In this document: positions 1-22,944 of the stretch, one piece after another
Numbering within the stretch: position 1 is the stretch's first letter
Layout: each line of letters opens with the position of its first letter
Source of the DNA: an uncultured bacterium
GTDB taxonomy: Bacteria; Chloroflexota; UBA5177; JANWHV01
Length of the DNA: 64,000 bases
Reading direction: 5' to 3'
Assembly: GCA_963729625.1 (NCBI GenBank)
Contig: CAVSOU010000008.1
Coordinates: forward strand, 256,001-320,000
Notes under the pieces: generated by a model
Told to the model about the DNA's origin: nothing
Database searches by the model: none
The model's input: the letters and a program-made list of their open reading frames with translations, nothing else
Position numbers and translations under genes: made by a program

Positions 1-242
1 GCGATCAGCGTATCGTCGTCAGTGCTCAACACGAGGCCAGGACTATACTTATGGACTTCGGCGACAACCGGTCCAGAGATCCAGATATCAAATAGTTTGT
101 CCTCAGCCTGCGTGAATATGTGTTGCGCGACAGCACCACGATCCACGAGACCGACCTTCTCACCCTTTACCCATCCAATGTAGACACAGGAGTCCAGAAA
201 TGGGCGCCTATAAGGGCCGGTCAGCGCGCTGTTAGGCGTCAC
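1..242 (-). CDS. PIN-domain (VapC-like) ribonuclease, runs off the left window edge
   Basis: Manual translation from GTG at 242: MTPNSALTGPYRRPFLDSCVYIGWVKGEK...IWISGPVVAEVHK. The FLDS-x-VY and IS-xxx-xAEV motifs are typical of PIN domains; overlaps the upstream stop by 11 nt. Confidence 0.7.
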   Translation of the reverse strand, partial: MTPNSALTGPYRRPFLDSCVYIGWVKGEKVGLVDRGAVAQHIFTQAEDKLFDIWISGPVVAEVHKYSPGLVLSTDDDTLI

Positions 243-1023
243 GCATCCTCCGTATGTACTCCACAGACTCAAGGCCGCCGGTGAAGTCAGGATCGCTGCC
301 CCAGAGCGACGCCGTCGTCGGCAGATCGCCGTCAGCGGCGAATGCCGTGAGGCGTTCGGCTTTCACGCGCACCGGCTCGTGCTCCGAATTGATAGCTACC
401 ATCCCGATCACAGAGACTCTGCCGCCGAGAGCCGACTTAGCCTGCTCGAGTAAGTCTGTTGAAGAGAAGTCACAGGTGACTGCCTTGTGCGTCCAACTGT
501 GGTATATGGTGAATCTTGGCTTCTGATGGACCGAGATGGCCTCAAGCGTGCCGTCGATTGAACCCAATGCTATGTGACGCACTTGCAACAACTGGGCAGC
601 GTGCACCGTCGCCTGAGCTGTCAGGTAGAGCTCACGCGTATCGTCCTCATTTACCAGCACGATGCCTGTGACACCCTCCCGGCCGATCAAGCGAAGCACA
701 CGCTGACAGCGCCGTATGCCAGTCTCGCGGAGATAGGGTGGAGTCATCGCTTGCTGTTCCAGACGCGCAACAGACGTGACGTAAGTCGCGATCACCTCCG
801 GGCCACAGTCTCGGTCCGCAAGACGAGTCCGAGGACTGATCGCCAGTTCGGCGCTCCCTTCCCGCAGCCCAGCGACGACCCAATCAAGGCTACCCTTCTT
901 CTCGCCGGAAATAGCTGTGTCGAGTTCCTCCAGAATGGCTTGTGTCTCCCGTAGCGCTGTTATTAGCGCATCCAGCGTGATATTGCCGAGGTCACCCTGG
1001 AGTCGAACCCGCAAGGTCGCCAT
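232..1023 (-). CDS. Hypothetical protein, probable antitoxin or partner of the PIN gene
   Basis: 263 aa ORF with GAGG RBS, coupled to the PIN gene; C-terminus PDFTGGLESVEYIRRMRD resembles VapB-type tails. Confidence 0.55.
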   Translation of the reverse strand: MATLRVRLQGDLGNITLDALITALRETQAILEELDTAISGEKKGSLDWVVAGLREGSAELAISPRTRLADRDCGPEVIATYVTSVARLEQQAMTPPYLRETGIRRCQRVLRLIGREGVTGIVLVNEDDTRELYLTAQATVHAAQLLQVRHIALGSIDGTLEAISVHQKPRFTIYHSWTHKAVTCDFSSTDLLEQAKSALGGRVSVIGMVAINSEHEPVRVKAERLTAFAADGDLPTTASLWGSDPDFTGGLESVEYIRRMRDA

Positions 1024-1242
1024 GTTAGTGCACCTCTAAATCCCTGCTGTCGTGCTGGATATCGCGTACATGCTAGCACACGCCACATGACCCGGTGCGC
1101 GAAAACAGGCCCGGCGATGGCCACCCAGCCGGCCCAAGACATGTGATCACCGCCCATACAGGGCGCGCATAGCCTGATGCCCGGGCAGTCGCAGTTCGGC
1201 GGGTGGCACCGGCGGAAGGCAACAGCGTGTGGGGTTGCAAAG

Positions 1243-1932
1243 CTACCGATATTTCGGCAGTTTTCCGCCGTCGCGCTCCCGGTGCCAGTCGTGCTCGCCG
1301 CTGCCCATGCCGCGCCACGGGCTCGGCCGGGTGTTCTCCCGCGGTGCCACGGGCAGCACGGGCGGATACTGCTCGCCGAACCAGCAGGCCAGGGCCACGG
1401 ACAGCACCAGATCGTCGTGGATGTTCTCCCGCCAGGCCTCGTAACTGTCGTTCCCGGTGGCGATGTTCACCTTGACCTTGAAGTTGAGCAGCTCCTGCAC
1501 CAGCGTTCCGGCCAGCGTCAGGCCCTCCGCGACCTTCAGCCGCCGGCCCTGGTAGAGCGCCACCAGCGTACTGGCCAGCTCGCGCTTGGGCACCTTCAGG
1601 TCGTAGGAGTTCTCCCGGTTCACCTCGGTCCCGCCGGTAATGGTGATGGCCCGGGGACGCACGCCGGCCGCGCTGAACATGTCGCAGATGGCGGCGCCGA
1701 CTCCGGTCCGGTCGATCACCAGCGGCGTGCTGCGCGTCAGGGGCGGGCGGTCGAGCAGGCCGATCACCTGCTCCACGATGACCGGGTAGCGCGTGCCCAG
1801 CGCCGGCCGCTCGAGGTAGCGCAGGTGATAGTCGTACTCGGCGCGACGGTCGCCTTCGACCTGTTCCACGATGCTGATCGCCGTGTAGTCCTGTGCCTGC
1901 CCCAGGTCCACGCCCACGATATAGTCGCTCAT
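1243..1932 (-). CDS. Terminase large subunit, nuclease (RNase H-like) half
   Basis: YIVGVDLGQAQDYTA, IDRTGVG and HDDLVLSVALA acidic motifs; own RBS (AAGGAG) and ATG. Confidence 0.85.
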   Translation of the reverse strand: MSDYIVGVDLGQAQDYTAISIVEQVEGDRRAEYDYHLRYLERPALGTRYPVIVEQVIGLLDRPPLTRSTPLVIDRTGVGAAICDMFSAAGVRPRAITITGGTEVNRENSYDLKVPKRELASTLVALYQGRRLKVAEGLTLAGTLVQELLNFKVKVNIATGNDSYEAWRENIHDDLVLSVALACWFGEQYPPVLPVAPRENTRPSPWRGMGSGEHDWHRERDGGKLPKYR

Positions 1933-1942
1933 TCTGGCTCCT

Positions 1943-2725
1943 TCATCCAGCCCGAAGGCTGGGGCCCTCGGCGAACAGCGGCGCCACGTCCGGCGTCATG
2001 CTGGCCATCACATCGTCATAGCCGAAGAGCTGGTCGACGGTCTCGGAGAACGCGCAGCAGTACTCTTGCTGGTACCACCAGGTGCCGAGCGCCCGCCGCT
2101 CCTCCTCCAGGAAGGCCGACGGGATGCGCGGGCACTGGCTCGCCGGCACCTCGTACCGCTCCCATCCGCTGCCCTCGGTCCACTCCTGGTGGAAGAAACC
2201 GCGCTTGCCGAACGGTGTGCTCAAGCACACGAGCCGCCCGCCGCTGACTGCCAGCATCGGCCTGCACGAATAGTACAATTCGTCCAGACAGCGTGCCGCT
2301 TCGTCGACGGCGAGCAGCGCCACGCCAGAATAGCCGCGCACTGTCTGCTCGGTGCCCGGCAGGCTGACGATGCGCGAGCCGTTCTCGAGCGTCAGTGTCA
2401 GCGCGGTCTCACTTTCGGCCGGCACCGGACGCCCGAGAGCGCGGTACACGCCGATGCACTTCTTGAACAGCTCCGAAGATTGCCGCAGGCTGGGCGAAAG
2501 CAGCAGCACCAGCGCGCCGGGTGTGTAGAGCGCGGTGTGCACTGCCAGCACGCTGGTAATGCTGGACTTACCGCTTTGCCGGCAGCAGTTCAGCAGCAAG
2601 CGCGGCGCGGTCGAGCGCAATACATCCTCTTGCCAGGCGTCCAGGTTCTCGAGGCCGACGGCGCGCGCCAGCCTGCACGGGTCGAGGGCCATAGCCAGGT
2701 CGCCGGCGAAGCTAGCCGTGTCCAT
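1943..2725 (-). CDS. Terminase large subunit, ATPase half
   Basis: LDAWQ, Walker A CCRQSGKS, Walker B LLAVDEAA, motif III STPFGKRGFF, QQEYCC. Confidence 0.88.
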   Translation of the reverse strand: MDTASFAGDLAMALDPCRLARAVGLENLDAWQEDVLRSTAPRLLLNCCRQSGKSSITSVLAVHTALYTPGALVLLLSPSLRQSSELFKKCIGVYRALGRPVPAESETALTLTLENGSRIVSLPGTEQTVRGYSGVALLAVDEAARCLDELYYSCRPMLAVSGGRLVCLSTPFGKRGFFHQEWTEGSGWERYEVPASQCPRIPSAFLEEERRALGTWWYQQEYCCAFSETVDQLFGYDDVMASMTPDVAPLFAEGPSLRAG

Positions 2726-3260
2726 TGGAGGCGTCCAGGCGCGCGAGGGCTCCCGCTACGGCGAATTTGGCCTCTGGGTGGGGCTGCAGGGCGTGCAGCA
2801 GCGTCGTGCGAACCTGGAGCCATTCGGGCGACAGCATCACCGCGACCTTGGGCGACTCGTCCAGTTCTCCCAGCAGCTTGGCCTGCAGCTCGATCTGCCG
2901 TTGAATACGGTCAATCGCGCGCAAGGCCGTCCCGGGGTCCCCGGCCTCACCGGCATCCATCAGGATTTGCAGGGTGGCGCTGTTGATGGCCTTCAGTTGT
3001 TGCACGACGTCGAGGGCCTGGCGGGCCTCTCTGGCTTCCTGACGCACTGCCTCTGCGGCAGTCTCAGCCGCGTGCACATCACGCTGCCGCAGTCCTTCGC
3101 CGAGCAGCGCGGGCAAGTGCTCGCTCTTGTGCCTGAAGAGGGCCGTCGCCGACATTCCGTAACATAGCGAAACACTCCGTAACGTCTGGCCTGCGACCAG
3201 CGCCCGGTCAATGTTGGCTCGCCCTTCATGCGTGCATACGCTACAGTTTCGTCCAGGCAT
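2712..3260 (-). CDS. Putative terminase small subunit
   Basis: N-terminal CSVC-H plus HTH (LRSVSLCYGMSATALFRHK), helical body, overlaps the terL ATPase start. Confidence 0.65.
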   Translation of the reverse strand: MPGRNCSVCTHEGRANIDRALVAGQTLRSVSLCYGMSATALFRHKSEHLPALLGEGLRQRDVHAAETAAEAVRQEAREARQALDVVQQLKAINSATLQILMDAGEAGDPGTALRAIDRIQRQIELQAKLLGELDESPKVAVMLSPEWLQVRTTLLHALQPHPEAKFAVAGALARLDASNGHG

Positions 3261-3263
3261 CGG

Positions 3264-4295
3264 TCAGCCCTCTTTCTCCGGCTCCTCCGGCAATAGCCCC
3301 ATCGCGCGCAGGAACGGGCGCGAGCGGGCCGCCAGCCGCATGCAGGCCGCGTACGTCATGACGTTCACGTGATCACCTATCAGGCTGCTCTGCGTTATCG
3401 AGCGGAAGGGGTTGCCGGTATCGGGTGCTTCCATCTGGGCCGTGAACTCCAGCGGCTGGCCGAACACCAGGCGGTTCAGGTTGGCGCGGTTGGGCCTAAA
3501 GCCCGGCACGCCCTCCACGCCGCAGCAGCAACTGGCATCGCTCAGACTGCGCAGGCGGTTCTCGCCGCAGAAGAAGGCGAGCCCGCACTCGTGCGCGGCC
3601 GCCTTGATCGCCGTGTACTCGGCCCGCAGTGCCGCTACGGGGTAGCACCAGTCCGCGCCCACGCGGATCATGCCCGGGCGCTTGCGGCCCCGCTTCATAC
3701 CCTGGATCTCCACGCCGTACACCCCGCGCGCCGCGTAGAGCGGCAGGGCGGCCCGCACGGACTCCACCAGGCCCAGGGAATAGGGGGAAATGCGCACGAT
3801 CACCCGTTTACAGGTTTCGGCCAGCTTAGGCAGCATGTCCAGCCGCTCCGCGAAGCGCGGGGCGCCTGGCTCCAGGGCGTCGTACTGCGGCGCTACCATG
3901 CTCACCTGGGCTACGGCGTTGCAGCGCCGCAGCAGGGCCAGGTACTCCGGCGTGGCGACGAGCTTGCCCTTGGTGCTGAAGGCGAACGGGTAGCCCGTGG
4001 CGGCGAACAATTCCAGCACGGCGTAGCTGGCCCGGTGTTTCTTCTCCAGCGGCTGAAAGGGGTCGCTCATGCCGCCCCAGTGCAGGGGTATGTCCCAATC
4101 ACACCAGCGACAGTCCGCAGTCCGCTTGCCCTGGATGAAGCGGTCTACCGCCGCCACCGACTCCAGAGCCTTCACGTTGTGGATTGAGCCGTTGCGTCGA
4201 GTGAAGCAATACGTGCAGCCATGCGAACAGCCCGCATAGGTGTCGAACCGAACCGGAAGATCGCAGAGCACCAGCTGGGAGCCGCAGCTAGGCAA
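3264..4295 (-). CDS. Radical SAM protein (spore photoproduct lyase-like family)
   Basis: CSHGCTYC CxxxCxxC motif, GGMSDPFQPLE, STKG; likely start TTG at 4295 behind GGAGG. Confidence 0.85.
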   Translation of the reverse strand: MPSCGSQLVLCDLPVRFDTYAGCSHGCTYCFTRRNGSIHNVKALESVAAVDRFIQGKRTADCRWCDWDIPLHWGGMSDPFQPLEKKHRASYAVLELFAATGYPFAFSTKGKLVATPEYLALLRRCNAVAQVSMVAPQYDALEPGAPRFAERLDMLPKLAETCKRVIVRISPYSLGLVESVRAALPLYAARGVYGVEIQGMKRGRKRPGMIRVGADWCYPVAALRAEYTAIKAAAHECGLAFFCGENRLRSLSDASCCCGVEGVPGFRPNRANLNRLVFGQPLEFTAQMEAPDTGNPFRSITQSSLIGDHVNVMTYAACMRLAARSRPFLRAMGLLPEEPEKEG

Positions 4296-4923
4296 CTTGG
4301 TCCTCCTCTGTAGAAGGCTTTGGTTCCTCGCGGCCACGAACCAAGGAGGCGAAAGCCTCTTCCCACGGGCCATGTCCGTCGCGGCGGATCACGCCACGCA
4401 CCAGTTCAGCGTCCTCCGCCTTGAAGACCAGCGTGACGCTCGCCTGCTCCCCGCCTAGCTCCGCGCGCAGGCCGGAACTGAAGCTATCCAGCAGGTCCTC
4501 GGGTACGAACTCGCGTCCCACGCCACCAGCCAGGCCATCGAGCATGGCGCGCAGTCCTTCGCTGTCGGTCCGCACCTCGTCCATGAGAGCCTGCAGCCGC
4601 CCGGCGGCCGCGCCGGCCATTGCCGCGATAGGGTCCATGGTCAGCAGCAGTTTGTTCGCCTCGGCTTCGTCCACATCCAGGATCGCAACCTGCCAGGTCT
4701 CATCAGGATCGACATCCTTGCGCAGATGCCCGTCAATCAGCGTCAACTCGCCAGCGCTGTTCGTGTACGCCACCAGCACGGCAGCCTTACCGACTTCTTC
4801 CAGAATGCCTTTCAGCGCGGCAGATTGCGCTTTTGAATGCGTCCTGAAATTCCTTGGATTAGCGGCCAGTTCAGCGGCGCATACCTTGCGTACGTCCACG
4901 ATGCGATCACGTAGCGCGCTCAT
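4288..4923 (-). CDS. ParB/Srx N-terminal domain protein
   Basis: LAANPRNFRTH...LIDGHLRK ParB-like motifs. Confidence 0.8.
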   Translation of the reverse strand: MSALRDRIVDVRKVCAAELAANPRNFRTHSKAQSAALKGILEEVGKAAVLVAYTNSAGELTLIDGHLRKDVDPDETWQVAILDVDEAEANKLLLTMDPIAAMAGAAAGRLQALMDEVRTDSEGLRAMLDGLAGGVGREFVPEDLLDSFSSGLRAELGGEQASVTLVFKAEDAELVRGVIRRDGHGPWEEAFASLVRGREEPKPSTEEDQVA

Positions 4924-4929
4924 GCGATG

Positions 4930-5412
4930 CTACTCCTTGGCCGAAGCCGAGCCTCCGGCCGGGGCTTGGTGCATGAGCAGTCCAAACTCTTTCCGGGCCG
5001 CCAACCGCCGCCCTACCAACATCCGGCCACGGGCTGCGGCGGTCTGGCAATCGAGGCTCCCCTCAGTGGCTTGGAACTCGCGTAGCAGTGTCTCTGACGT
5101 CTCCAACTCTTTGGCCAGGGTGGGATTCTGGGCCAGTGCCCAGGCGTGGCGCCGCGAGCGGTCGGCGTCGAGCAGGGCCTGCTGCTCGGCTGCCTTCAGG
5201 GCGGCGGCTTGCCGTTCCGCCTCCGCCTCGATGGTCCGCAGGTGGTGCATGGCGCTGTCGGCTCTCTCTTTGGCCTCGTGTAGCCGGGGACTGTGGGGCG
5301 AAAGCACGCCGGCCTGGCTCAAGTATGCTAAGTCCCGGACCTTGAGCAAGGCGGTTTCGGCTGCTTGGGTCGCGGCCTCGATGGCCGAAGGCTCGGCATC
5401 GGTGATGTCCAT
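4930..5412 (-). CDS. Hypothetical coiled-coil protein
   Basis: ATG after GGAGG; helical sequence; N-terminus similar to the upstream small ORF. Confidence 0.55.
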   Translation of the reverse strand: MDITDAEPSAIEAATQAAETALLKVRDLAYLSQAGVLSPHSPRLHEAKERADSAMHHLRTIEAEAERQAAALKAAEQQALLDADRSRRHAWALAQNPTLAKELETSETLLREFQATEGSLDCQTAAARGRMLVGRRLAARKEFGLLMHQAPAGGSASAKE

Positions 5413-5413
5413 C

Positions 5414-5617
5414 TCATCCTCCATACAACACGCGCTTGGCGTCAGATAGGGCATCCGAAGTCGCCTTGGCCCGCTGCCTGGCTGCCAGGAGTTCGGGGGA
5501 GTCGGCGGCCACGACGCCAATCTGGGCCAGATACTCGACGTCTCGAAGTTCCAATGCGGCGGAGCGTGCACGTCCCTGTGCGTCGGCGACGCTCTGCAAA
5601 GCTTGGTCATGGTTCAC
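5414..5617 (-). CDS. Small hypothetical protein
   Basis: GTG after AAGGAG RBS; stop adjacent to the next start. Confidence 0.55.
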   Translation of the reverse strand: MNHDQALQSVADAQGRARSAALELRDVEYLAQIGVVAADSPELLAARQRAKATSDALSDAKRVLYGG

Positions 5618-5725
5618 ATCTCTCTCCTTTCGTTCAAGGGTGGTCGGGCCTGTGGTGGTGAGGACAGGCCCGGCCTCAAGGTGGCCGCCTGGCGGTGGAG
5701 GGCGCACCGGACGGCCGGGTAAATG

Positions 5726-5953
5726 CTAGAACTCTGGCCGCGTCTTCGCGAGCAAGTTGTCGGCAAGCTTGCGGGTCTCGGTATAGCTCTTGCCAAGCAC
5801 CTTGGCCACTTTACGCAGGTCGTTTTCACAGGCGGCCATTGCGTTTACCAGCATCACGTCCTCATCCGTGGTGGCCACGGCGCGGACGGCTTCGGACTCG
5901 GCGAACTTGCGCAGGATGACGCGGTCTCGAATAGCGCTGGCTGTTTTGTCCAT
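5726..5953 (-). CDS. Small hypothetical protein
   Basis: ATG after AAGGAGTAGG; 75 aa. Confidence 0.5.
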   Translation of the reverse strand: MDKTASAIRDRVILRKFAESEAVRAVATTDEDVMLVNAMAACENDLRKVAKVLGKSYTETRKLADNLLAKTRPEF

Positions 5954-5956
5954 GTC

Positions 5957-6178
5957 CTACTCCTTATCGGGGAATCCTATGTTCCCTGCTATGATCGGGC
6001 GGGGTCCTAGCGCGCGGTTGCGGGGTCCCAACGCGGCCACCGTGCGCCGCAGTTCGTCGGACGTGGTGCCCAGCTCCGCCGCCGCGTTCTTCCAGTTCCC
6101 ATTGCAGTGTTCGAGGGCGTCGAGCATCTCGTTCTCGGCACCGGTTGCGCTCTGCCGGATATGATTGGGCCATTTCAT
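5957..6178 (-). CDS. Fis-type helix-turn-helix protein
   Basis: LDALEHCNGNWKNAAAELG matches the Fis/HTH_8 pattern. Confidence 0.6.
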   Translation of the reverse strand: MKWPNHIRQSATGAENEMLDALEHCNGNWKNAAAELGTTSDELRRTVAALGPRNRALGPRPIIAGNIGFPDKE

Positions 6179-6234
6179 GGGTGGTTTCCTTTCCTGCTAG
6201 ATGCCTGCCGGCTTTGCCGGTCCCTTCCTCCGCC

Positions 6235-6441
6235 TCACTCCTTTCTCGGGGCTTCATGCAGCAAGCCCAGTCGATGCGCTTTCCTGAGTGCGGCGCGCAG
6301 GTAGCGCTCGGAGCAGCGACAGCGGGCAGCCGCCAGCCGGATAAACTCCCGCTCGTTGTACGGCCAGGGCAACTGTGCGCAATTGCGCACATGCTCACTT
6401 GCGGCGCCGTGTATTCGGTGGTCTACGTTCGCGGTGTTCAT
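6235..6441 (-). CDS. Small hypothetical protein (possible winged helix)
   Basis: ATG overlaps the stop of the upstream ORF; CSERYLRAALRKAHRLGLL. Confidence 0.4.
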   Translation of the reverse strand: MNTANVDHRIHGAASEHVRNCAQLPWPYNEREFIRLAAARCRCSERYLRAALRKAHRLGLLHEAPRKE

Positions 6442-6734
6442 CGGACACACGCCAGGCGCGGCACGTTGGCCAGTTCCAGCGCGCGTAGGGCCTGCTCGGC
6501 GCGCCGGCCCTGTAGCACGAGTGTCCGCTCCCAGCCTTTCGGCATGTCGCGCAGCGCAACCGTTACCTTGGGCGCTGGCACCCACGTTCCGTCGTCGCAG
6601 AGCACCTCGCCTTGGCCGGGGAAATAGGCCGCGATACAGGCTCGATTGACGCGGAGCATGCCGAGCGTCACGAACTCCGTTTCCTTCCTGCTTGCTTCTT
6701 TGCGTGTAGCTTTCGCTACGGCTAGGTCGTACAC
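6438..6734 (-). CDS. Hypothetical protein
   Basis: 98 aa ORF in the operon direction. Confidence 0.45.
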   Translation of the reverse strand: MYDLAVAKATRKEASRKETEFVTLGMLRVNRACIAAYFPGQGEVLCDDGTWVPAPKVTVALRDMPKGWERTLVLQGRRAEQALRALELANVPRLACVR

Positions 6735-6869
6735 TTAGTCTGTTCCCTTCACTTCCGCCGCGGCCGGCCAGGGCCACGGCATGCTCATATCCGTCGTGGT
6801 GCGCTCTTTCAGTAGCGCCACCAGCTCGGGTTTTCTGTCCGCCAGCCAATCATGACTCGTCCACTCCTT

Positions 6870-6963
6870 CACATTTTCATTTCCTATCAGCACGACTTCA
6901 GCACTTCGCGAAGTGCTGAAGTGTGCTGAAGTCCGCTGAAGTCCGCTGAAGTCGCGCTAAAAG
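6870..6963. repeat. Iteron array with palindrome, putative replication origin
   Basis: GCTGAAGT at 6915, 6925, 6935 and 6945 (10-bp period); perfect 28-bp palindrome ACTTCAGCACTTCGCGAAGTGCTGAAGT at 6895-6922; short AT-rich tract at 6870-6888; directly after the primase-helicase stop. Confidence 0.75.
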
Positions 6964-6970
6964 CACACAT

Positions 6971-9100
6971 TCAGAAGGGCTCCTCGTCACTGCCTATCGG
7001 GAAGTACCTGGAGTCGCTGCTTTTGGCCTTGCCGGCATGCCGTAACAACCCTGCTTGCTCCAGTCTCAGCAGGCACTTCGCCAGCACGCGATCTTGTTGA
7101 ACACCGCTGCGAACCTTAATGTCGCCGTAGGCCCACCCGGCGGGCGGCGCGTTTTGCAGGGCCTCATAGACGGCTCGCTCGTCAGCGGAAAACGCCGTCT
7201 TCGTCGGGTCCACGCCTTCGCGGTCGTTCGCTACCAGCACGGCTGTCCTGACGTCGCGCGCCGGGTCCGTGAACTCCTTCAGGTGGTAGAAGTGGTTCGG
7301 GAACTGGGGCGAATTGCTCCCGGCAGCCCATGACACGGTGATTGTGCCCAGTTCGTCTTGAGCCAGTTTGATGCACTGCGTCACGCCGGCCAGCAGCACC
7401 GTTGAGCCCCGCATCCGGTCGCTTTCGGCCCAGCCGGAATGATGGACGAGCATGACGTGCGCGCCGGTTTCGCGCCGCAGTATGTCGACGCCTCGAATCA
7501 GGTCCTGCATGTCCTTGGTCGAGTTCTCATCGCCCAGGTTGCACCGGCTTACCGTGTCGAGGGCGAACAGTGCGGGCCGCTGGAGTCCGGCATCAGCGAG
7601 CGTTCCTTGCAAGACCGCCAGCTCCTCTGCGATGGCCACGTAGACAGGCTGCGTGATGACTACCAGGTTGGGAATGGTCTTGCCGCCGTTGTAGGTCGCG
7701 CACCATGCGTACAGGCGGTCGCCGAACTTCCGAACGTTGCCTTCCGCCATGACGATGACCACCGGTCTACCGGTCGTCACGGCCACGCGGCAGGCTATCT
7801 CGACGACCAGGAACGTTTTCCCTTTACCTATTCCTGCAAAGAGCAGGCTTGCTTCGCCCCCCACGACGTATGGCTCGTAGAGATAGGTGGGCTTGAGCTG
7901 AGCGAGCATCTCTTCTATGCTCCAGAACTTGAAGCGACGGGGCGGTTCCATACTCTCTGCGTGAGCGTTGTGCGGAGAATCCGGTAAATACGCTGCATTG
8001 CCGTTCGGACTCGCGTGTACGTCGCGAACGCTCACCATGCCGCCGTACCCTTGCGTGGCCAGCGCCGACGCCGCGCGAGTCCAGTCGCTGCCGTGCTCGA
8101 GTGCTGCGTAGATTTGGAAAGGAGCGTAGCCGCGGCCAGGCTCGAATATCGGCCAAGACGTGCTGAACTGCACAAGGATAGGCACGCCGTTCAGCACGCG
8201 GATATCGCCAGAGCTCCCGTCTCTCGGGTCCTTGCCCGGTCGCGTGATTGTCGCTCCGACCCCGGTGGACCAGGTTCGCACGGTCGCGCCGGCCTTGCGC
8301 AGCAGGGCTTCGACGTCCGCCAAAGACGCTCGCTCGTTGTAGGCGTCCCCGGGTCGTGTGCCGCCGTCGTGGCGGCTCGAACGCCCCGCTCGCCGGACAG
8401 CGGCCGCCTGCGCCGCGTGCAGGAACTCCATGCCCTCATTGAACTCGCCTGCTATCTCGATGAGCAGGTCGCGCTCCTGCAAGGTCACTGTCGGGGGATT
8501 GAGGGGATCGCCCTGCACGACTTCGCAGCCCACCATAGGCCAGAAGATGCCGTAGCCACCGTCACCTCGACTCTCGATCAACGGCTCTCGCTTGACCCTG
8601 GTGGGATCGTCTTCGTCCGGACTGTAGGCTGCCGCGAATACCTGGTTCCCGGATAGCTCGCCCCCGTACCGGATCGGAATATGGAGCCCTCCGGACTTAG
8701 AGCGCCACATAAGCAGGCGCCCATACAGCCCAGGATTCCGCTCTCGCACCCGGTTGCAATAGTGCTCGACGCGCTGGGCATCCTGGCCCTTGAGATCTAT
8801 CTCGAACAGTTCCAGGGCCTCGCCCAGCGGCCTTTGCTTGCCGTAGACGATGGCCGCAACGTCGGCCCCCTGCCCCGGCCAGGCGTCGAATTCTGCCGGC
8901 GTCGCCAGCCGTTCCCGGAATGGAGCCCAGGTCCGCTTCAGCTCGCCCGTTTCCGGGTCGAGCCTGACTGGAAGCGCATCAAAGCGCGGTTGCTTGGTGC
9001 TGGTGCTGGCGGGGAGAATGCTGATATTGGCGGCCAGCAGCTGCGCTGCCATCCGCCAGTTCGGTGGTGTAAGGACGGGACCAGCGGGCGCGGCGCTCAT
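6971..9100 (-). CDS. Bifunctional primase-polymerase / AAA_25 (RepA-like) helicase
   Basis: Prim-Pol motifs ILP...KQP, EIDL, SKSGGLH, ESRGDGGY; helicase AGIGKGKT, ALDT, VHHSG, RGST; C-terminal wHTH-like segment. Confidence 0.85.
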   Translation of the reverse strand: MSAAPAGPVLTPPNWRMAAQLLAANISILPASTSTKQPRFDALPVRLDPETGELKRTWAPFRERLATPAEFDAWPGQGADVAAIVYGKQRPLGEALELFEIDLKGQDAQRVEHYCNRVRERNPGLYGRLLMWRSKSGGLHIPIRYGGELSGNQVFAAAYSPDEDDPTRVKREPLIESRGDGGYGIFWPMVGCEVVQGDPLNPPTVTLQERDLLIEIAGEFNEGMEFLHAAQAAAVRRAGRSSRHDGGTRPGDAYNERASLADVEALLRKAGATVRTWSTGVGATITRPGKDPRDGSSGDIRVLNGVPILVQFSTSWPIFEPGRGYAPFQIYAALEHGSDWTRAASALATQGYGGMVSVRDVHASPNGNAAYLPDSPHNAHAESMEPPRRFKFWSIEEMLAQLKPTYLYEPYVVGGEASLLFAGIGKGKTFLVVEIACRVAVTTGRPVVIVMAEGNVRKFGDRLYAWCATYNGGKTIPNLVVITQPVYVAIAEELAVLQGTLADAGLQRPALFALDTVSRCNLGDENSTKDMQDLIRGVDILRRETGAHVMLVHHSGWAESDRMRGSTVLLAGVTQCIKLAQDELGTITVSWAAGSNSPQFPNHFYHLKEFTDPARDVRTAVLVANDREGVDPTKTAFSADERAVYEALQNAPPAGWAYGDIKVRSGVQQDRVLAKCLLRLEQAGLLRHAGKAKSSDSRYFPIGSDEEPF

Positions 9101-9330
9101 GACCGCATACCCGCGACAGCAAGCGCTCGAGCGATGCGCTGCTCAGCAGGAAGGCTCGTGTCTCCCAGGATCGCGACGGCACGTCGCGCACGATAACCCG
9201 AGAGAAGACAATCACGCTCTCGCAGTAAGCAGGACACCTCGCGCGTCAAGCTGACAATCCGTCGCTCCAAGCAGAGAGCTTCGGCGCTTGCCGCTGTGGT
9301 AGGATTAAGGTTGTGGAGCGGTGCAACCAT
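9097..9330 (-). CDS. Hypothetical protein
   Basis: ATG after GGAGG; ATGA overlap with the primase start. Confidence 0.45.
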   Translation of the reverse strand: MVAPLHNLNPTTAASAEALCLERRIVSLTREVSCLLRERDCLLSGYRARRAVAILGDTSLPAEQRIARALAVAGMRS

Positions 9331-9508
9331 CACCACCTCCACGCTTCCCGCCGCCGGCCTGACTCGCTGGCGGCTTGCTGTCCTGGTGGGAGCGTTCACC
9401 CTGGCGCTTCCGCAGGTTGAGCCAGCCCTCGAAGACGGCCGCTGAGATGTCTTGCAGGGCTGCCTCGGGACTGATGGGCGCGGTGTCGGTTTGCGCAAGC
9501 GCAGCCAT
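9305..9508 (-). CDS. Hypothetical protein
   Basis: TGATG coupling to the upstream HTH gene. Confidence 0.45.
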   Translation of the reverse strand: MAALAQTDTAPISPEAALQDISAAVFEGWLNLRKRQGERSHQDSKPPASQAGGGKRGGGDGCTAPQP

Positions 9509-9732
9509 CAGACTGCGGCCTCGTACCGGTGGCCTTCGTCGGGCGTGAGGCCGAGCGCTCGGTCAATTTCGGCTGTCGGAACGAGAATCCTCTTCCCTGC
9601 ACGGATGACACGTACGGGAAACTCGCCCCTCGCGGCCAGCTCATAGCCGGTGCCGGGGCTAATCCCCAGGCGCCGCGATGCCTGCGGAATGCTTTGTGTC
9701 GCGCGTGCTGGCTTTGCGGTAGCGTTCGACAT
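9508..9732 (-). CDS. Excisionase/AlpA-like HTH protein
   Basis: SIPQASRRLGISPGTGYELAARGEFPVRVIRAGKRILVP is an HTH_17 pattern; AGGAGG RBS. Confidence 0.85.
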   Translation of the reverse strand: MSNATAKPARATQSIPQASRRLGISPGTGYELAARGEFPVRVIRAGKRILVPTAEIDRALGLTPDEGHRYEAAV

Positions 9733-9821
9733 ACGCGCTAACCTCCTTTTCTGGACTGTGCGGTCTTATGCCGCTAAGTCCAATTTAGGCCGGTTTAGGC
9801 GCTATGTATGTACGTATCTCG

Positions 9822-9862
9822 CGTGACACGGCACTTTCGTACTACGAATATCCGGTGTCACG
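9822..9862. promoter_or_regulatory. 41-bp imperfect inverted repeat (operator or terminator)
   Basis: CGTGACAC...GTGTCACG and inner TTCGTA-C-TACGAA share a centre at 9842; upstream of the xis-like gene. Confidence 0.45.
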
Positions 9863-9874
9863 AGGAAGCGTATA

Positions 9875-10840
9875 TCAGGCGGGAGAGGGTACCGGGTCGT
9901 TCTGGCGAAGCCACTTCTCGGCATAGCGCCGTCGCTCCCGTTCGACCCGTGCTGATTGGGTGTCTGCGAGCTGGCAGTACTTCTTCACGTAGGCGATCCG
10001 TGTTACGCGGGGGTTCTCCGCCACAGCGTCGAGCCAGCCATTATAGAGGCGCACATCCTCTAGGTATTTGTCCTTGCTGACCGTAGTAGGTCGCAGGGTT
10101 TTTGTTCGGTACCGTTCAACCTCCCGGAATGCCCTCGCGAGGTCTTCGCGGAGGTCGTCCACGTCGGCATAGAGGCCGGGAGTCATGAAGATAACCACCT
10201 GCGGATACCCCTGGCGTACGAGGTTCCTGTCGGCGTAGACTTGCCTCGTTAGGTGCAAGGCCGTCTTGGCAACCCTTTTAGGTTTCCCTGCCACTACTAA
10301 GGTTGCCTCGGGAGCTTCTATGTACGCCAACCCTTCGTCTTCGTCACGTGCCGGCGCGTATTCTGCAAGCCATACCTCAACATGCGTATGTGAAGGCGCC
10401 GCGCCTGTCCCGCCGATAGGCAGGAATGGGGGATCCTCGTCGAGGTCAGCAAGCAGTTGCTTCAGAGCAATGTCCCAGGTCTCCCGTATGGCTATATGTA
10501 AGGTGGCCTCGACCATATCCGCTGCTATCGGGGTATACCGCTCGTCGTTCACAATACCCGGGAACTGGGCGGTTATCCGGTACTCTTCCTCCGCGATCCA
10601 CGGGTATTGCGCACTCGTGCCGTTCCGTACAAGGGCCTCCGCAAGGTCGGGACGCAGGTTGGTCGCATCCATAGCACGGCATATCAGCCGCGAGTGCGAC
10701 TCTGCCAGCGCGCGCTGAAGAAGCTGGTATTCACCCAATGCAGTGCCCCAGGCGCGTACAGCACTGAGGGAGTACCGCGGCCTAGCCCACCATTCGGCAG
10801 GCTTTTCATACTTCAGGCGGGATACACTGAAATCAGCCAT
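9875..10840 (-). CDS. Hypothetical protein, possible element regulator
   Basis: About 320 aa, lower GC, GGAGGG RBS, lies between int and xis. Confidence 0.55.
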   Translation of the reverse strand: MADFSVSRLKYEKPAEWWARPRYSLSAVRAWGTALGEYQLLQRALAESHSRLICRAMDATNLRPDLAEALVRNGTSAQYPWIAEEEYRITAQFPGIVNDERYTPIAADMVEATLHIAIRETWDIALKQLLADLDEDPPFLPIGGTGAAPSHTHVEVWLAEYAPARDEDEGLAYIEAPEATLVVAGKPKRVAKTALHLTRQVYADRNLVRQGYPQVVIFMTPGLYADVDDLREDLARAFREVERYRTKTLRPTTVSKDKYLEDVRLYNGWLDAVAENPRVTRIAYVKKYCQLADTQSARVERERRRYAEKWLRQNDPVPSPA

Positions 10841-10909
10841 CGCTCGAGCCCTCCACGCTCGCGATGCGGGCCGGTTCTGTCGCAAGCAGACCGGCCTACC
10901 TACTTGATC

Positions 10910-12623
10910 TTACTTCTTGGCGACCAGCCCGGCACGTTTCCGCGCCATGTAGCGCCTCATCGCCAGCGCATGGAGTTGCTTGGACGTCAGATGTTCCGGT
11001 GACTCGACGTTGGGGCCAACGATGACTTGTTCCGCGTCGATGAGTACCTGCAGCGGCTTAGTCCATACGACCTCGGCGCGCAGCCACGTTGACCGCAGTT
11101 CAGGCACGCGCTCAACGATGGTCGCGCTTTCGACGAACATCAGGGCGAGGTTTCTAAGCTCCCGCTCCATGTCATTGGCGACGTACTGGTCGATGAGCCT
11201 CGTCAAGGCGGACTTTCTCGAACTCCGCATGGAGCGCTTTCGCGTCTGCCGGCGTCGGCGCGGGTGCCGGCAGCACAGCGAGTTCACGCTCAATACTGAC
11301 TATCTTGTCGCTCAGCTCGTTACTGCCGCGGCGATAGGCGGCCACTTCCTGCGGCGTCGGGGTATCGCCCGCCAGCAGTGTGAAGTTCTTGATATGCCGC
11401 TGGAGTTCGTCTTTCGCTACGTCGAGCCGCTTCCGGAGCAGGGGGCGCGGATCTACTGTCGGTGTAACCGTGCTCGCCGCCCGCGATAGGTCCCACGACT
11501 TGAACTGGATCCGCTTGATCTGGGCAAGTACCGCCTCATGCGCAAAGCTTGCCACGTAGTGTGACGGCTTGCAGACGGCCTCGCCGTTGGCGTGCCGTAC
11601 GCAGACATAGGTGGGCCGGTGCTTGCTGGCAGGATCTCGCACGCGGCTAATGACCATGCGGCCGCCGCACGTGCAGCGCAGCAGTCCAGCACACAGGGGA
11701 ACAGGCTGGTCGGTCAGTCTGCCGCGGAACTGCCCCGTGCGTGCATCCGTCAGCCGACGCTGCACCTGATCGAACGTCGCTTGGTCGATGAGCGCTTCAT
11801 GCTCGGCTGGAACCGTGAACTCGCTTCCATCCTCGCATCGCTCGAAGCGACCGGACGGCTGCGCGTTATAGCGAAGGTGTCCAACATAGACCGGATTGCG
11901 CAGAATGTAGTTGAGCTTATCTGTCCTCCACGTCAGGCCCTTGGGCGACTTCGGGCAAGCCGGATCGTTATTGGCCCAGCGTGCCAGCTCGAGTAATGAC
12001 TGACCAGACGCATACCGCGTGTACAGCTCAGTGACGAACGACGCTGCAGGCTCGTTGCGGGTCAGTGTGCCGGCTTGGTAGCGCCCGCCGCCGGTCCGCT
12101 CCTGATAGCGCAGGACATAGCCGAAGGGGACGATGCCGTGATGCTTGCCTTCCCGCACTGAACGCTCCAGACTGGGGCGGACGCGGCGTGCGAGCTCCCG
12201 GCTATATTGCTCGGCCATGCCGCTCCGTACGAAGCGCATGATACCAGGCTCCTCGGTCCCCTCTCGGACGGAGATGAGCTTGACTCCCAGATTCTCCATC
12301 TCGCGGCAGCGGACGATCAGCTCGCCGCCATCGCGCCCGAGCCGGTCGAGTTGGTGCACGATGACAGCGCCGATGGTCCCGCTTCGCACGGACGCCAAAA
12401 GTCGCTGGTAGCCATGACGAGTGAGCTTGTGGCCGCTCTCGAAATCGCTTTCCATCTGCGCGACGTCGAGCCCGTGCTCGGCTGCGTAGCTCCTGATTGC
12501 CTCCTCCTGAAGTTCTGGGCTGTAACCGTCGCTCTGCTTGAGCGTGCTGACTCTGATATAGCCTGCTGCTCTTGTCGCGACCGCCGGGAGTGCCGTCAAG
12601 CGTCGTGCTGGTGCTGTCATCAC
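10910..12623 (-). CDS. Large serine recombinase/integrase with an apparent frameshift near 11215
   Basis: YIRVST, DRLGRD, recombinase domain, Zn ribbon LLRCTCGG...YVC...C and coiled coil; a typical C-terminal segment (ERELRNLALMFVESATI) continues in another frame to 10910. Confidence 0.9.
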
Positions 12624-12656
12624 GTCCTCCTTCGGGGACTCTCTCCCCTTAAGAGA

Positions 12657-12665
12657 ATTATATCA
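12657..12665 (-). promoter_or_regulatory. Extended -10 promoter of the integrase
   Basis: TGaTATAAT on the minus strand about 35 nt upstream of the start codon, with an AAGGAGG RBS between. Confidence 0.6.
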
Positions 12666-12669
12666 TAAA

Positions 12670-12710
12670 CAACACTAACAGGTAAATAGTTCGTTCTTAC
12701 CCATCTGTCT
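12670..12710. other. Putative att junction of the satellite
   Basis: terL reading frame loses similarity right after GKNEL and stops (FTC*); abrupt AT-rich sequence; short dyad GGTAA-N11-TTACC at 12681-12701. Confidence 0.6.
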
Positions 12711-12878
12711 GGCCATCATCACGGTAAGCGTGTCTCCCTTGCGGGAGAGCACCGCCCTGACGATGGCGCGAGCGATCTCCGCCTGGTAGGGCCGGAGCGG
12801 CCTCTTTACCACGGACTCGCTAAAGCGCACGACGTCGTCCAGCAAGACTTCGACTGATGAGGGTGTCGCGGCAGACAC
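12675..12878 (-). pseudogene. 5' fragment of a terminase large subunit, interrupted by the satellite
   Basis: AAGGAGG RBS; LRPYQ adenine-binding motif and TVMMARQMGKNEL terminase-type Walker A, then a premature stop next to the integrase promoter. Confidence 0.75.
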
Positions 12879-16479: not shown

Positions 16480-18459
16480 TCACATTCCTTCACAGCTCAG
16501 CTGCAGCTCATACTGCGAGGACCGCGCATCCACCGTCAGCCGCAGCCCCACGATCCGGCACGATAACCCCGGCAAAATGCTGTCGGTCAGAGCCACCGCG
16601 TCATACAGCTCTAACGCCGGGTTCGGCCCCACCGTCAGCTGCACCTGCGTCGCCAGCCGCTGCTCACGCGCCAGCGCGAATTGCGCCGCATACACCGCCC
16701 CGCCCGCCGTCGTCGCCAGCTGCTCTACCACCAGCGCGTATCGCTCACGCCCCGTCGCCGCCAGGTCCGCGCTGTCCCATACCTCGGCCACCGCCGCCGC
16801 GATCTTGGTCGGCCCGCGCACCGCTACCCGGTTCGCCCGGTCGCCGTCCACGCCCACCTGCAGCGCCTCCGCCTCCACGCCGTAGCTCCATACCGTCGCC
16901 TGGCTCGCACTCTTGCCGATCACGTCCAGCCAGTCTACCGCCGCGAAGGCCACGCCCGGCGCCGGCACCACCCGCACCCGCCAGGCCCCCGCCCAGGCAC
17001 GCAGCATCCGCTGCATGGCCAGCGTGTAGGTCTCGCCGGCCACCAGCTGGTAGGTCGTTACGATCTGGTTGAACTGCTGCGACCCGTCGATCGTCGAGGC
17101 CCGCTCGAACCCCGCCTGCGCCGCCAGGTCGAACACGATGTCAATAATCTGCCTGGACGCGTAGGAGAGCGGCACGCATGTCTCATACTCCAGACACCAG
17201 GACGCGTCCAGGGCCACGATCGCGATCTCGCTCACGTCCACCGCACGCGCGAAGGTCCACGATTCCACGTAGAAGAGGTGCGTCGGTATGAGACCGGCGC
17301 CCACGAAACCCTGGCTGAGCAGGATCTGGGCCCGCACTTTCAGCGCTGCCAGGCCGCTGTATTGCCCCGCGCTGTTGTCCAGCGTCGCCGTCAGCGTGGC
17401 CGGCTTGCCCTCCGCCTCTACGACCTCAAGCCGCAGCAGATCCGCCGTCAGGTCGCGGTAGTCCGTCGCCGGGTCGTAGCTCGGCGCGAACAGCACCGCC
17501 TCCAGGCCCGCGAGCACCTGGCCCAGCGCGTGCTGCAGCCAGACCGCCCCACACGTCACCGCCGTCCCCGGCGACGCCGTGCCGGCCGTCCAGTGCACGA
17601 AGTCCGCTGAGCTGGCACGCACCAGTCGCGCATACGGCACGCCATCCACGGCGCCGGAGTCCTGCTCGACCCATGTCAGCCGGTAGAGCCCGCCCCAGTG
17701 CGTCAGGTGCGGATAGGCCGCATAGATGCCCGTCGCCAGCAGCAGCGTCTGCAGCGGCGTGAGCACCGACCAGGCCGGAGCGCCGCCATATACGTACGTG
17801 CAGCTCACCAGCCTGCTTGGCGAGCCCGCCGCCTGCCAGCCGGCCAGCACCACGCTGTAGCTGCCGTCCACGTTGCGCACGGCGTCGATGCCCACCACCT
17901 GGCCCCAGTCCCCGTTCGTCCAGTCGAGGCCCGACCACGTGCCGGCCAGATGCCAGGCGGCCGGCCGCGCCACGCCCGTCCCCGGGTTGTAGGCGAGAAG
18001 GACCGTGCCCAGGTCGCCGTCGCCCGCCAGGCCCCAGCAGGCGTGAGCAGGGTCGAAGAGGACGGCCGTCGCGCCCCAGCTCACCCCGCTGTCCGTCGAG
18101 TCCGTCGCGCACACCTGCGTGGTGCTCGTCTTCTGCCACAGCACGCGCACCGTCGCCCCGGCCACGATGCAGCAGCAGCCGGCCTGCAGCCGCGCGTCGC
18201 TCGTCAAAAACGTCCAGGCGTTCCATAGCACCACGTCGGACGGGTCCGTGACCCGAATGATGTAGAGCCCGCTCGACAGCACGCAGGCAGCCACGAGTGC
18301 CCCGTCCGGGGCAATGCAGGCGCTGGTCCGCGAGGCGGTTTCGCCCAGGGCGCGCACCACCGCGAAGTGCGGCGCCGCGTCCGCCAGCTCCAGCCGCACA
18401 TCCGGCGGGGATCCGAACGTCTGGGCCGCCGCAGTCAGATAGGGAGAAAGCGTCCTCAT
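16480..18459 (-). CDS. Phage tail/baseplate-hub-like protein
   Basis: Starts MRTLSPYL (ATGA overlap); propeller-like N-terminus; LTATLDNSAGQY and PNPALELYDAV motifs typical of tail hub proteins. Confidence 0.65.
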   Translation of the reverse strand: MRTLSPYLTAAAQTFGSPPDVRLELADAAPHFAVVRALGETASRTSACIAPDGALVAACVLSSGLYIIRVTDPSDVVLWNAWTFLTSDARLQAGCCCIVAGATVRVLWQKTSTTQVCATDSTDSGVSWGATAVLFDPAHACWGLAGDGDLGTVLLAYNPGTGVARPAAWHLAGTWSGLDWTNGDWGQVVGIDAVRNVDGSYSVVLAGWQAAGSPSRLVSCTYVYGGAPAWSVLTPLQTLLLATGIYAAYPHLTHWGGLYRLTWVEQDSGAVDGVPYARLVRASSADFVHWTAGTASPGTAVTCGAVWLQHALGQVLAGLEAVLFAPSYDPATDYRDLTADLLRLEVVEAEGKPATLTATLDNSAGQYSGLAALKVRAQILLSQGFVGAGLIPTHLFYVESWTFARAVDVSEIAIVALDASWCLEYETCVPLSYASRQIIDIVFDLAAQAGFERASTIDGSQQFNQIVTTYQLVAGETYTLAMQRMLRAWAGAWRVRVVPAPGVAFAAVDWLDVIGKSASQATVWSYGVEAEALQVGVDGDRANRVAVRGPTKIAAAVAEVWDSADLAATGRERYALVVEQLATTAGGAVYAAQFALAREQRLATQVQLTVGPNPALELYDAVALTDSILPGLSCRIVGLRLTVDARSSQYELQLSCEGM

Positions 18460-18674
18460 GCCGGACCCCCACTCGGGTGGGTACCCGGTGCCCGGTCCCC
18501 GGTCCCCGCCGCGGCGATCGCGTTCCGCCGCACGAGCTCGTCGATCGCCTCCAGCAGCAGCATCGCCAATCCGGTCAGCCGCTGATCGTGCGCGTGGTCC
18601 TTCACCAGGTCGATCACCGTGGCGCGAATAATCCCGCACTCCTCATCGCTGAACACCCGCAACGCCTCCGCCAT
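18456..18674 (-). CDS. Small hypothetical protein
   Basis: Translationally coupled on both sides (TGATG and ATGA). Confidence 0.55.
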   Translation of the reverse strand: MAEALRVFSDEECGIIRATVIDLVKDHAHDQRLTGLAMLLLEAIDELVRRNAIAAAGTGDRAPGTHPSGGPA

Positions 18675-22942: not shown

Positions 22943-22944
22943 TG

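Follow-up and report, generated by a model that had tools for sequence, protein, structure and literature searches.

The window examined here is a 64,000-nucleotide stretch of the genome of an uncultured Chloroflexota bacterium (assembly GCA_963729625.1, here G000; contig CAVSOU010000008.1, here C8; positions 256001-320000), and coordinates to the left of it are given as negative numbers. The assembly amounts to 5.4 Mb in 21 contigs at ~63% G+C, with 87% completeness and 5% contamination. The locus holds a phage-derived cluster of head, tail and lysis genes, ~25 kb long without its insert, and the gene for the large terminase subunit (terL) of this resident cluster is interrupted: a 15,207-bp integrative element has been inserted by a large serine recombinase within the Walker-A codons. 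The element extends over C8:253484-268690 (window -2516 to 12690), with the crossover dinucleotide GA located at both junctions. The original prediction, made from the letters of the window, gave the span as 1 to 12878; it had the right junction in place, and the left end actually lies 2.5 kb outside the window.

The resident terL is split within its Walker-A codons

The right-hand fragment of the gene is a 67-aa open reading frame (ORF; 12878-12675, minus strand) with GTG as its start codon and GGAGG as ribosome-binding site; it reads ...LRPYQAEIARAIV...MMARQMGKNE, and then continues in frame into element DNA, so that its C-terminal end is ...LRPYQAEIARAIVRAVLSRKGDTLTVMMARQMGKNE-LFTC before a stop at 12675-12677. 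The break falls inside the Walker-A codons, at GKNE^L (caret, break point). This stub is present once in the G000 genome and is itself unrecognised in Pfam and PHROGs scans. Its longer relatives are more telling: 30 proteins among 437 candidates match at E<=0.01, mostly 485-505 aa in length, all 30 are continuous across the position of the break (...MARQMGKNEL/V-SA...), and one carries PF17289 (Terminase_6C). Since intact members of this family match large-terminase PHROGs (phrog_2 at 1.1e-15, phrog_5909), homology identifies the stub as the true N-terminus of a terL of ~490 aa, cut within Walker-A.

The rest of the gene was located by tblastn of a 493-aa homologue (P0004) against the whole genome, which returned exactly two places: residues 2-68 correspond to the stub, and residues 52-493 to C8:253530-252205 (window -2470 to -3795), at 71% identity and on the stub's strand. 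The halves lie ~15 kb apart, with the remainder to the left of the window, and a Pfam scan of the 434-aa 3' part gave no match. Exact attL x attR recombination would rebuild the gene: joining the junctions in silico at GA yields a 489-aa terL frame that aligns with 0 gaps both to a relative of the same length (P0005, 489 aa; 74.8% identity over 477 aa) and to P0004 (73.3% over 483 aa). By its Walker-A sequence ARQMGKNE, its length when joined and its intact homologues, the interrupted gene fits a large terminase, a protein of ~450-500 aa with an N-terminal ATPase and a C-terminal RNaseH-like nuclease. As only the stub and a promoterless 426-codon remainder are present, the cluster is without an intact terL while the element is integrated. 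The original prediction had read a terL 5' fragment ending at ~12690 beside the promoter of a serine integrase, and had pointed to a 3' remainder at the other att site, an intact ORF on joining and uninterrupted genes in relatives; all of this was recovered (Table 1), the last in two congeners, G003 and G004.

Both interrupted copies of the gene that we found, in G000 and in a third congener, G001, keep an open frame of 425-426 codons past the junction. In all three pairs among G000, G001 and G003, terL has a dN/dS of 0.13-0.14, at a dS of at least 1.0, so that a recent relaxation of selection would be invisible. Directly upstream of the terL start is a strong terminator-like hairpin (12991-13014, minus strand; 10 pairs, 8 of them G-C), and beyond it a 78-aa ORF (13069-13305, minus strand) with a Flp/Fap-pilin match below threshold (27.5 bits against a cut-off of 32.2 bits). 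terL may form its own transcription unit.

Attachment sites and integrase

The junction at the stub reads GGT AAG AAC GA^A CTA TTT ACC, entering AT-rich element DNA, and that at the remainder reads TAT ATT GA^G CTT TCA GCG, encoding ELSAELEAYLL; the dinucleotide GA is common to both, in register. Rebuilding attP from the two junctions places a 17-bp perfect inverted repeat, TATATCATAAACAACAC / GTGTTGTTTATGATATA, around the crossover, whose position we infer from the symmetry of the att site and from the G001 junctions. Inverted symmetry, a 2-bp crossover and the lack of a long end repeat are consistent with the geometry expected of a large-serine-recombinase site.

The integrase gene starts 52 nt past the stop codon of the stub. 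Its product contains Resolvase (PF00239, 4e-27), Recombinase (PF07508, 5.4e-18) and Zn_ribbon_recom (PF13408, 3.1e-6) domains, all above their cut-offs, and matches phrog_95 (integrase, 9.4e-76). Promoter-like sites, as consensus matches only, numbered 2 against 0.2 expected in shuffled sequence. Relatives of the integrase were found at 10 loci in genome contigs, all at <=29% identity, and at 3 loci in metagenome contigs, at <=26%; viral contigs gave no locus. Three sequencing runs in the form of Logan contigs, one of them containing 0.11 of the sampled words, produced no piece that bridges a junction, and no RNA run turned up, a result that says nothing on excision or expression. Pieces of 162-262 nt matched free of mismatches over their whole length, others were ~32-38-nt matches within longer contigs, and the listed 'joints' have sides of <=21 nt.

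Gene content of the element

The integrase and nearly all other genes of the element share the strand of terL in G000. ORFs of 127 and 336 aa without assignment separate the integrase from a 74-aa excisionase-like protein of the HTH_17 family (HTH, helix-turn-helix), which is 48% identical to the xis-like ORF of a compact element described below and is a candidate directionality factor or regulator. The primase-helicase gene comes next, followed by several small ORFs; farther on are a putative cargo gene, the terminase genes and a gene for a 263-aa protein. This last protein has 17 homologues and an AlphaFold2 (AF2) model with a pLDDT of 82, whose best Foldseek matches are OB-fold domains of LysRS, Stn1/Ten1, SSB and PriB, at a TM of only ~0.23 because one domain alone matches; by this model it is neither a capsid nor a portal protein. 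Also present are a weak ParB/methyltransferase-like ORF (phrog_498, 7.8e-7) and a 170-aa ORF that spans the window's first base. In the 2.5 kb to the left of the window are a divergent pair of RHH-like (ribbon-helix-helix) genes on the plus strand, a 267-aa ORF belonging to a family of >5000 hypothetical proteins of ~210-220 aa and, after it, two small ORFs; one of these resembles an HTH protein weakly, at E 0.0011, short of the Pfam cut-off.

No capsid, portal, tail or lysis gene was matched by any element ORF in Pfam or PHROGs, those of the 2.5 kb outside the window included, and we saw no disrupted genes in the element. None of 14 proteins searched for defence genes with PADLOC gave a match; 11 of them are encoded by the element and 3 by neighbouring resident or flanking DNA. 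As judged from its genes, the functions of the element are confined to integration, replication and packaging, and the earlier assignment of replication functions, terS and terL, with neither capsid nor portal, holds up in the form of a primase/AAA_25 helicase, a terS-like ORF and a TerL encoded as two ORFs.

A two-part terminase and its compact relatives

The ATPase half of the element's TerL is 54% identical to TerL of the Thermus phage Riverbug, and its closest cultured relatives (Riverbug and the Meiothermus phages MMP17 and MMP7, at 49-54% identity) have TerL as a single ORF of ~415 aa. The nuclease half lies in another frame and can be aligned with the C-half of Riverbug TerL (29% identity; 4e-7 when the search space is small); tblastn of this half against the phage collection returned nothing at 1e-5. 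Among IMG/VR contigs, 18 encode ATPase halves 43-66% identical to that of the element, and the nuclease half comes directly next in 13 of these. Nine such contigs were gene-called, and in six (L039, L041, L046, L047, L049 and L052) the ATPase (252-279 aa) and nuclease (218-258 aa) ORFs are separate, as they are in the genomes G098 and G084. That the two-ORF TerL is simply a broken gene is ruled out by this recurring layout and by the start of the nuclease ORF, where an ATG 10 nt past the ATPase-half stop comes with a Shine-Dalgarno-like GAGGGGG of its own. By this comparison the split TerL is a natural form. Two of the relatives, L041 and L053, belong to true phages: in both a portal gene is found downstream of TerL, and in L041 a gene for a major capsid protein as well. 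Among 301 Chloroflexota genomes, the element-type TerL occurs in 7.

Immediately upstream of the ATPase half is a 182-aa ORF with a CxxC motif, an HTH and long helices. A homologue precedes the ATPase half at 8 of 20 viral or phage loci and at 5 of 6 Chloroflexota loci. Searched against the PDB, the family profile has the Sf6 small terminase as its best match, a weak one (E 0.019-0.058), and the AF2 model again shows an HTH and long helices; a Foldseek search of the model gave nothing at E<=0.001, with small terminases at ranks 22-23 (E 2.8). Because the profile match is weak and the fold search not significant, we keep the label 'terS-like', as one that position and profile tentatively favour.

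Complete compact elements with the same kind of terminase are found in two other Chloroflexota genomes, G098 and G084. Common to both are a tyrosine integrase, a primase (866 aa in G098), a terS-like gene and a split TerL; beyond these, the G098 element has an xis-like gene and four further ORFs, and the G084 element a methyltransferase gene. No portal or capsid match was obtained in either. They are candidates for a family of terminase-only satellites. IMG/VR contigs of 11.7, 12.5 and 18.5 kb which may be incomplete, likewise combine replication genes with a split TerL and have no portal match. The ORF that stands before the ATPase half is a homologue of the 182-aa ORF (o2712) in L039, a phrog_4044 terS match in L052 and a phrog_645 match in L046.

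The resident cluster

The genes of the resident cluster (Table 1) lie between an S53 peptidase gene, followed by sugar-transport genes, on the left and a membrane-protein gene on the right; a peptidase gene is also listed between the capsid fusion and the endolysin. The candidate small terminase of the cluster, a 140-aa ORF conserved in G001 and in G004, shows only a weak match to the terS of two more distant genomes, G027 and G039 (43% across 30 aa; E 0.003, the space searched being 3.8 kb). We found no tape-measure or tail-tube gene in the cluster, and the resident particle would therefore be podovirus-like. No integrase, excisionase, repressor or replication initiator was detected among the 27 cluster ORFs searched with PHROGs or among the Pfam-scanned ORFs, and searches of the G000 assembly by tblastn and with PF05065, PF04860 and PF17289 revealed no other head genes. 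The cluster occupies the same locus in G000, G001 and G004.

Several features of the neighbourhood are recorded here in their own right. A 600-aa Y-family polymerase (14106-15908, minus strand; IMS domain, 2.1e-22) is encoded between the tail genes and the putative terS; it is an insertion or moron in G000, since G001 keeps the 190-aa neighbour (15901-16473, minus strand) without the polymerase gene. Large HTH/AAA/TPR regulators are encoded at 40179-43376 (minus strand) and 44657-47767 (plus strand), and the 1065-aa regulator has many paralogues, at 41-79% identity, on contigs C8, C10, C11, C15 and C17. In G001, a Tn7-like transposon separates the capsid gene from its final 74 codons, which are found 47.5 kb further on. 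The 47.5-kb insert near the capsid 3' end (L058:2424-13000 and L017:1-10996; G001:C9:1045427-1092993) encodes a 1047-aa TnsA-N/rve/Mu-transposase-C protein, a TniB/AAA protein and a TniQ-HTH protein at one end, and a 1885-aa RuvB-like AAA protein near the opposite end.

Table 1. Positions of the features described in the text (window coordinates unless a contig or locus is named)
Feature	Position	Strand	Basis or remark
Element, portion within the window	1..12690		left 2.5 kb and left junction outside the window
terL 5' stub, native part	12691..12878	-	homologue alignment, junction reading
terL 3' remainder, 426 codons + stop	C8:252202-253483 (window -3798..-2517)	-	tblastn with P0004; read as L001/L057
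Large serine recombinase (integrase), 483 aa	11172..12623	-	Pfam, PHROGs
Promoter-like site TTTACC-18-TATAAT, TG before -10	12657..12686	-	10/12 matches; P' arm, upstream of int
Excisionase-like HTH_17 protein, 74 aa	9508..9732	-	PF12728 2.4e-7; phrog_66 excisionase/regulator 8.7e-5
Primase / AAA_25 helicase, 709 aa	6971..9100	-	PF13481 5.6e-22; phrog_19930 and phrog_906 DNA polymerase/primase
Radical-SAM-like protein, 369 aa, putative cargo	3264..4373	-	PF04055 5.2e-6, 27.2 bits, below 29.5-bit cut-off
terS-like ORF, 182 aa	2712..3260	-	position and weak profile match
Element TerL, ATPase half, 260 aa	1943..2725	-	phrog_7579 terminase large subunit 2.3e-58; PF03237 4e-5
Element TerL, nuclease half, 229 aa	1243..1932	-	phrog_27743 4.8e-44; PF17289 Terminase_6C 6.5e-4, below cut-off
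OB-fold protein (predicted), 263 aa, after TerL	232..1023	-	AF2 model, Foldseek
267-aa ORF, left of the window	L057:2303-3106	-	homologue search
Candidate small terminase, 140 aa	13718..14140	-	weak match to G027/G039 terS
Adaptor/head-closure-like, tail and tail-fibre genes	16480..27466	-	GDSL-lipase domains, gp53-like C-terminus
Protease / major-head fusion protein, 808 aa	28032..30458	-	phrog_4523 4.8e-62, phrog_133 3e-54
Endolysin	33523..34323	-	phrog_291 3.1e-36
Portal protein, 579 aa, right-hand end of cluster	34495..36234	-	phrog_10963 1.9e-42
GDT1/OFeT-like membrane protein, right neighbour of cluster	36551-37297	+	
G098 element, 11,171 bp	L066:6356-17598		72-nt repeats, tRNA-SeC
G084 element, 11,752 bp	L069:80-11884		53-nt repeats, tRNA-Arg

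Occupancy of the site among congeners

The terL site is occupied in G000 and G001 and empty in G003 and G004; in G004 the empty site lies in the same context, with the 719-aa, 190-aa and 140-aa genes followed by terL. terL was not found in G002, an assembly that is 83% complete. In G001 the same GA is occupied by a different element of ~16.7 kb in inverted orientation. The integrase of that element, 57-58% identical to the G000 integrase, adjoins the terL 3' half and is directed away from it, antisense to terL. Relative to its integrase, the G001 attP core reads TC instead of GA, which would be how a pseudo-symmetric serine-recombinase site comes to integrate in the opposite direction. The Walker-A codons are conserved in 16 of the 16 homologues read, the unpublished G018 among them. 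One further contig (L072; G015:C242, 6283 bp) ends 21 nt upstream of the Walker-A site of its terL; the contig may end there by chance, or the assembly may have stopped at an att site that is occupied or polymorphic.

The resident terL family across Chloroflexota

Beyond the genus, the resident terL proves to be widespread. Its 3' half has matches in the genomes of 21 of 41 relatives (G018 included in that count), and in an even sample of the phylum, with the unpublished G018 and G055 included, the family is present at E<=1e-20 in 105 of the 301 Chloroflexota genomes, or in 76 of the 245 that have >=90% completeness and <=5% contamination. There is mostly one copy per genome, at 38-51% identity outside the genus, and several families are all-or-none for the gene (9/9, 18/21 and 5/5 against 0/19, 0/18 and 0/17). 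Small genomes are among the carriers, both closed ones (1.4-1.9 Mb) and drafts (down to 0.9 Mb). Host-like genes surround terL in G005 and G008 and terS-terL in G039. In G027, terS-terL is followed by a portal gene and an HK97-type capsid gene, and the order terL, portal, capsid is seen in G026 and G038. G039 and G027 belong to different families and have six genes flanking terS-terL in common, at 33-63% identity. When the two are set side by side (G039, L020:7021-9126; G027, L019:3137-4531), an intact terS-terL is seen beside a broken, inverted portal remnant in G039, among the small closed genomes; by this comparison terL appears to have outlived the rest of the head module in the G039 lineage. 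Stops or truncation affect a minority of terL copies.

Among terL homologues from G011, G038 and G178, and from G146, G106 and G267, some open frames are 973-1043 aa long, and in others the match falls into two blocks (~residues 5-250 and 270-417) of a single 511-609-aa frame, which suggests inteins or fusions inside terL of other Chloroflexota.

From its distribution, the resident terL module looks like an old, largely vertically inherited, phage-derived module of which terL has been unusually well kept. We hypothesise that the resident cluster is like a gene transfer agent (GTA). Two facts speak against this: the cluster is decayed in G001, and portal and capsid genes of the G000 type were each found in only 16 of the 41 relatives. 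A search of titles and abstracts brought up no paper on a Chloroflexota GTA.

Discussion

In size and gene set the element resembles a satellite of the phage-inducible chromosomal island (PICI) type: a 10-15-kb island with an integrase, a primase-replicase and packaging genes and without a full virion module. The reading that we prefer, at a probability of about 0.55-0.6, is that it is a phage satellite of the helper-embedded type. On induction, such an element would excise, restoring the resident terL, and would replicate by means of its own primase-helicase; its own terminase would then recognise a pac site of the element and fill capsids made by a helper. The nearest candidate for that helper would be the embedding cluster, because it is the sole head module detectable in the assembly, and an infecting phage is equally possible. 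Serine-recombinase elements would use the Walker-A codons as attB, these being the most invariant stretch of a gene that is widespread and single-copy in the phylum.

The identity of the helper is the weakest link in the satellite reading. The resident terL may be merely a conserved single-copy landing site and an infecting phage the real helper, and a helper prophage could be missing from an assembly that is 87% complete. Further points weigh against this reading. Sequence by itself assigns no directionality factor within the element. The TerL of the element belongs to a family with no relation to the resident terL, and its relatives in true phages pair with portals of phrog_533 and phrog_2662, as opposed to the phrog_10963 portal of the resident cluster, so that docking on resident procapsids is doubtful. 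The resident cluster may be inert: in G001 it is damaged by frameshifts, with one in-frame TAG in the portal gene and with the capsid gene and two other genes in pieces. The element that occupies the site in G001 has two tape-measure fragments, an AAA_25 helicase in two ORFs and no TerL, together with a terS-like HTH ORF, and by this content is plainly a decayed temperate-phage remnant; the integrase lineage and its site are therefore not restricted to satellites, and co-orientation with terL is not conserved. A close integrase is present in only 2 of 21 genomes of the class, and only two terL-embedded elements were found across genome, metagenome and viral contigs and the class. Finally, accessory ORFs of the compact elements show no cross-match by blastp at E<=0.01.

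The same observations lend weight to the possibility that the G000 element is itself a decayed or minimal temperate phage, one that used its serine recombinase to enter the terL of a defunct prophage, a harmless and conserved place to land, and then lost its structural genes, leaving the terminase behind. The remnant at the identical site in G001, with its tape-measure fragments and its helicase in two ORFs, is an example of just this outcome; the element's packaging module stems from true phages that have portal and capsid genes just downstream, and the resident cluster is visibly decaying in that congener. We nevertheless consider decay clearly less probable than a satellite, and somewhat unlikely overall. 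No gene of the G000 element is seen to be broken, and both interrupted terL copies have intact frames, at a dN/dS of ~0.14. Moreover, the size and gene set match those of two independent att-bounded elements of ~11 kb, in G098 and G084, and this shared layout favours a satellite over random decay.

Serine-recombinase elements that restore host genes on excision are known in SPbeta, inserted in spsM, skin, inserted in sigK, and the fdxN element, and the skin and SPbeta elements of Bacillus supply the model for a different view, in which an immobile, domesticated element serves as a gene switch and its recombinase rebuilds terL only when the particle system is needed. The placing of the recombinase next to the junction, its co-orientation with terL and the exactness with which excision would rebuild the gene all fit a switch, as does a terL family that looks vertically inherited and under purifying selection. 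Yet two of the four congeners that have terL carry no insert, the two inserts differ in cargo and orientation, and full replication and packaging genes, needless for a switch, have been retained; we judge this view very improbable. That the locus is an artefact, with a mobile-element contig chimerically joined into terL, could be entertained for a 21-contig assembly of 87% completeness and 5% contamination, but is scarcely credible when the junctions are base-exact and reciprocal and rebuild a gapless ORF, and when the independently assembled genome of a congener has the same site occupied.

If the preferred interpretation, a helper-embedded satellite, is correct, satellites of this type extend beyond enterobacteria and beyond tyrosine integrases, and a design is added in which capsid genes are lacking and a terminase alone, made up of a split TerL with a terS-like gene, is kept. 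The presence of the resident terL family in about one third of the sampled Chloroflexota, including genomes of 0.9-1.9 Mb, mostly as a single copy and, in the three congeners compared, under purifying selection, is the pattern expected of a domesticated packaging or particle system. A more far-reaching proposal combines the two: an ancient, vertically inherited particle system of Chloroflexota would have its terL as the dedicated landing site of serine-recombinase satellites with a two-piece terminase, the packaging motor being off while a satellite is integrated and restored on excision, when both would compete for the same capsids. We regard this scheme as unlikely; were it true, reversible insertion into a motor gene would decide which DNA a domesticated particle system exports. 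Whichever reading applies, a serine recombinase with a defined attB (the Walker-A codons) and a defined attP (the 17-bp inverted repeats) makes a well-delimited and directly testable recombination system.

Comparison with known systems

The likeness to the SPbeta, skin and fdxN elements lies in the large serine recombinase at the junction, in the duplication of only the 2-bp crossover and in an excision that restores the reading frame exactly. The difference is that those elements interrupt a host developmental gene, whereas here the target is a phage packaging gene and the insert brings replication and packaging genes of its own. Gene transfer agents such as RcGTA are the model for the embedding cluster, which resembles them in being a cluster of head, tail and lysis genes without integrase or replication genes, at the same locus in congeners, and in having a terL family that is widespread and mostly single-copy in the phylum. 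Unlike RcGTA, the resident cluster varies in gene order and completeness, and terL is sometimes found alone.

For the element itself, the helper-embedded PICIs (HE-PICIs) offer the closest comparison; their integrases are reportedly tyrosine recombinases. Tommasini, Mageeney and Williams (2023) describe 492 such islands (a prototype and 491 others) at 14 sites in lambda-like late genes, and one of the 14, 'A:Terminase_1:245', is in a large-terminase gene (PMC10111431). The original prediction had presented a satellite within terL as its strongest candidate for an undescribed system, a claim that this publication of helper-embedded islands, a large-terminase site included, overtakes. As far as the main text of that paper goes, HE-PICIs belong to Enterobacteriaceae, reside in inducible lambdoid prophages that excise themselves and have integrases of one clade, and the word 'serine' is absent from it (PMC10111431). 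The G000 element shares with them its position within a late, packaging gene of a phage-derived cluster. It differs in having a large serine recombinase in place of that tyrosine-integrase clade, in its occurrence in Chloroflexota as opposed to Enterobacteriaceae, in an embedding cluster without integrase or replication genes where HE-PICIs have an inducible prophage as helper, and in bringing a terS-like gene and a complete two-ORF TerL. The co-orientation of HE-PICIs with the late gene is seen in G000, whereas the integrase in G001 is antisense.

Like PICIs and capsid-forming PICIs (cfPICIs), the element is integrative, has a length in the 10-15-kb range and combines an integrase and regulators with a primase-replicase and packaging genes. 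Classical PICIs have terS and no terL, in contrast to the terS-like gene plus TerL found here, and in cfPICIs terL is reported to be accompanied by genes for capsid and head-tail connector proteins (de Sousa et al. 2023, PMC10085698), whereas the G000 element has TerL without capsid, portal or connector genes and so falls outside that class. One candidate for such a comparison, Pseudomonas AH14b, has no terminase (PMC4936722). A search of titles and abstracts, supplements aside, brought up no terminase-only satellite. The kind of system is already known; of interest are mainly the pairing of a serine recombinase with a site in terL, the terminase-only layout of the putative satellite and the phylum-wide terL family.

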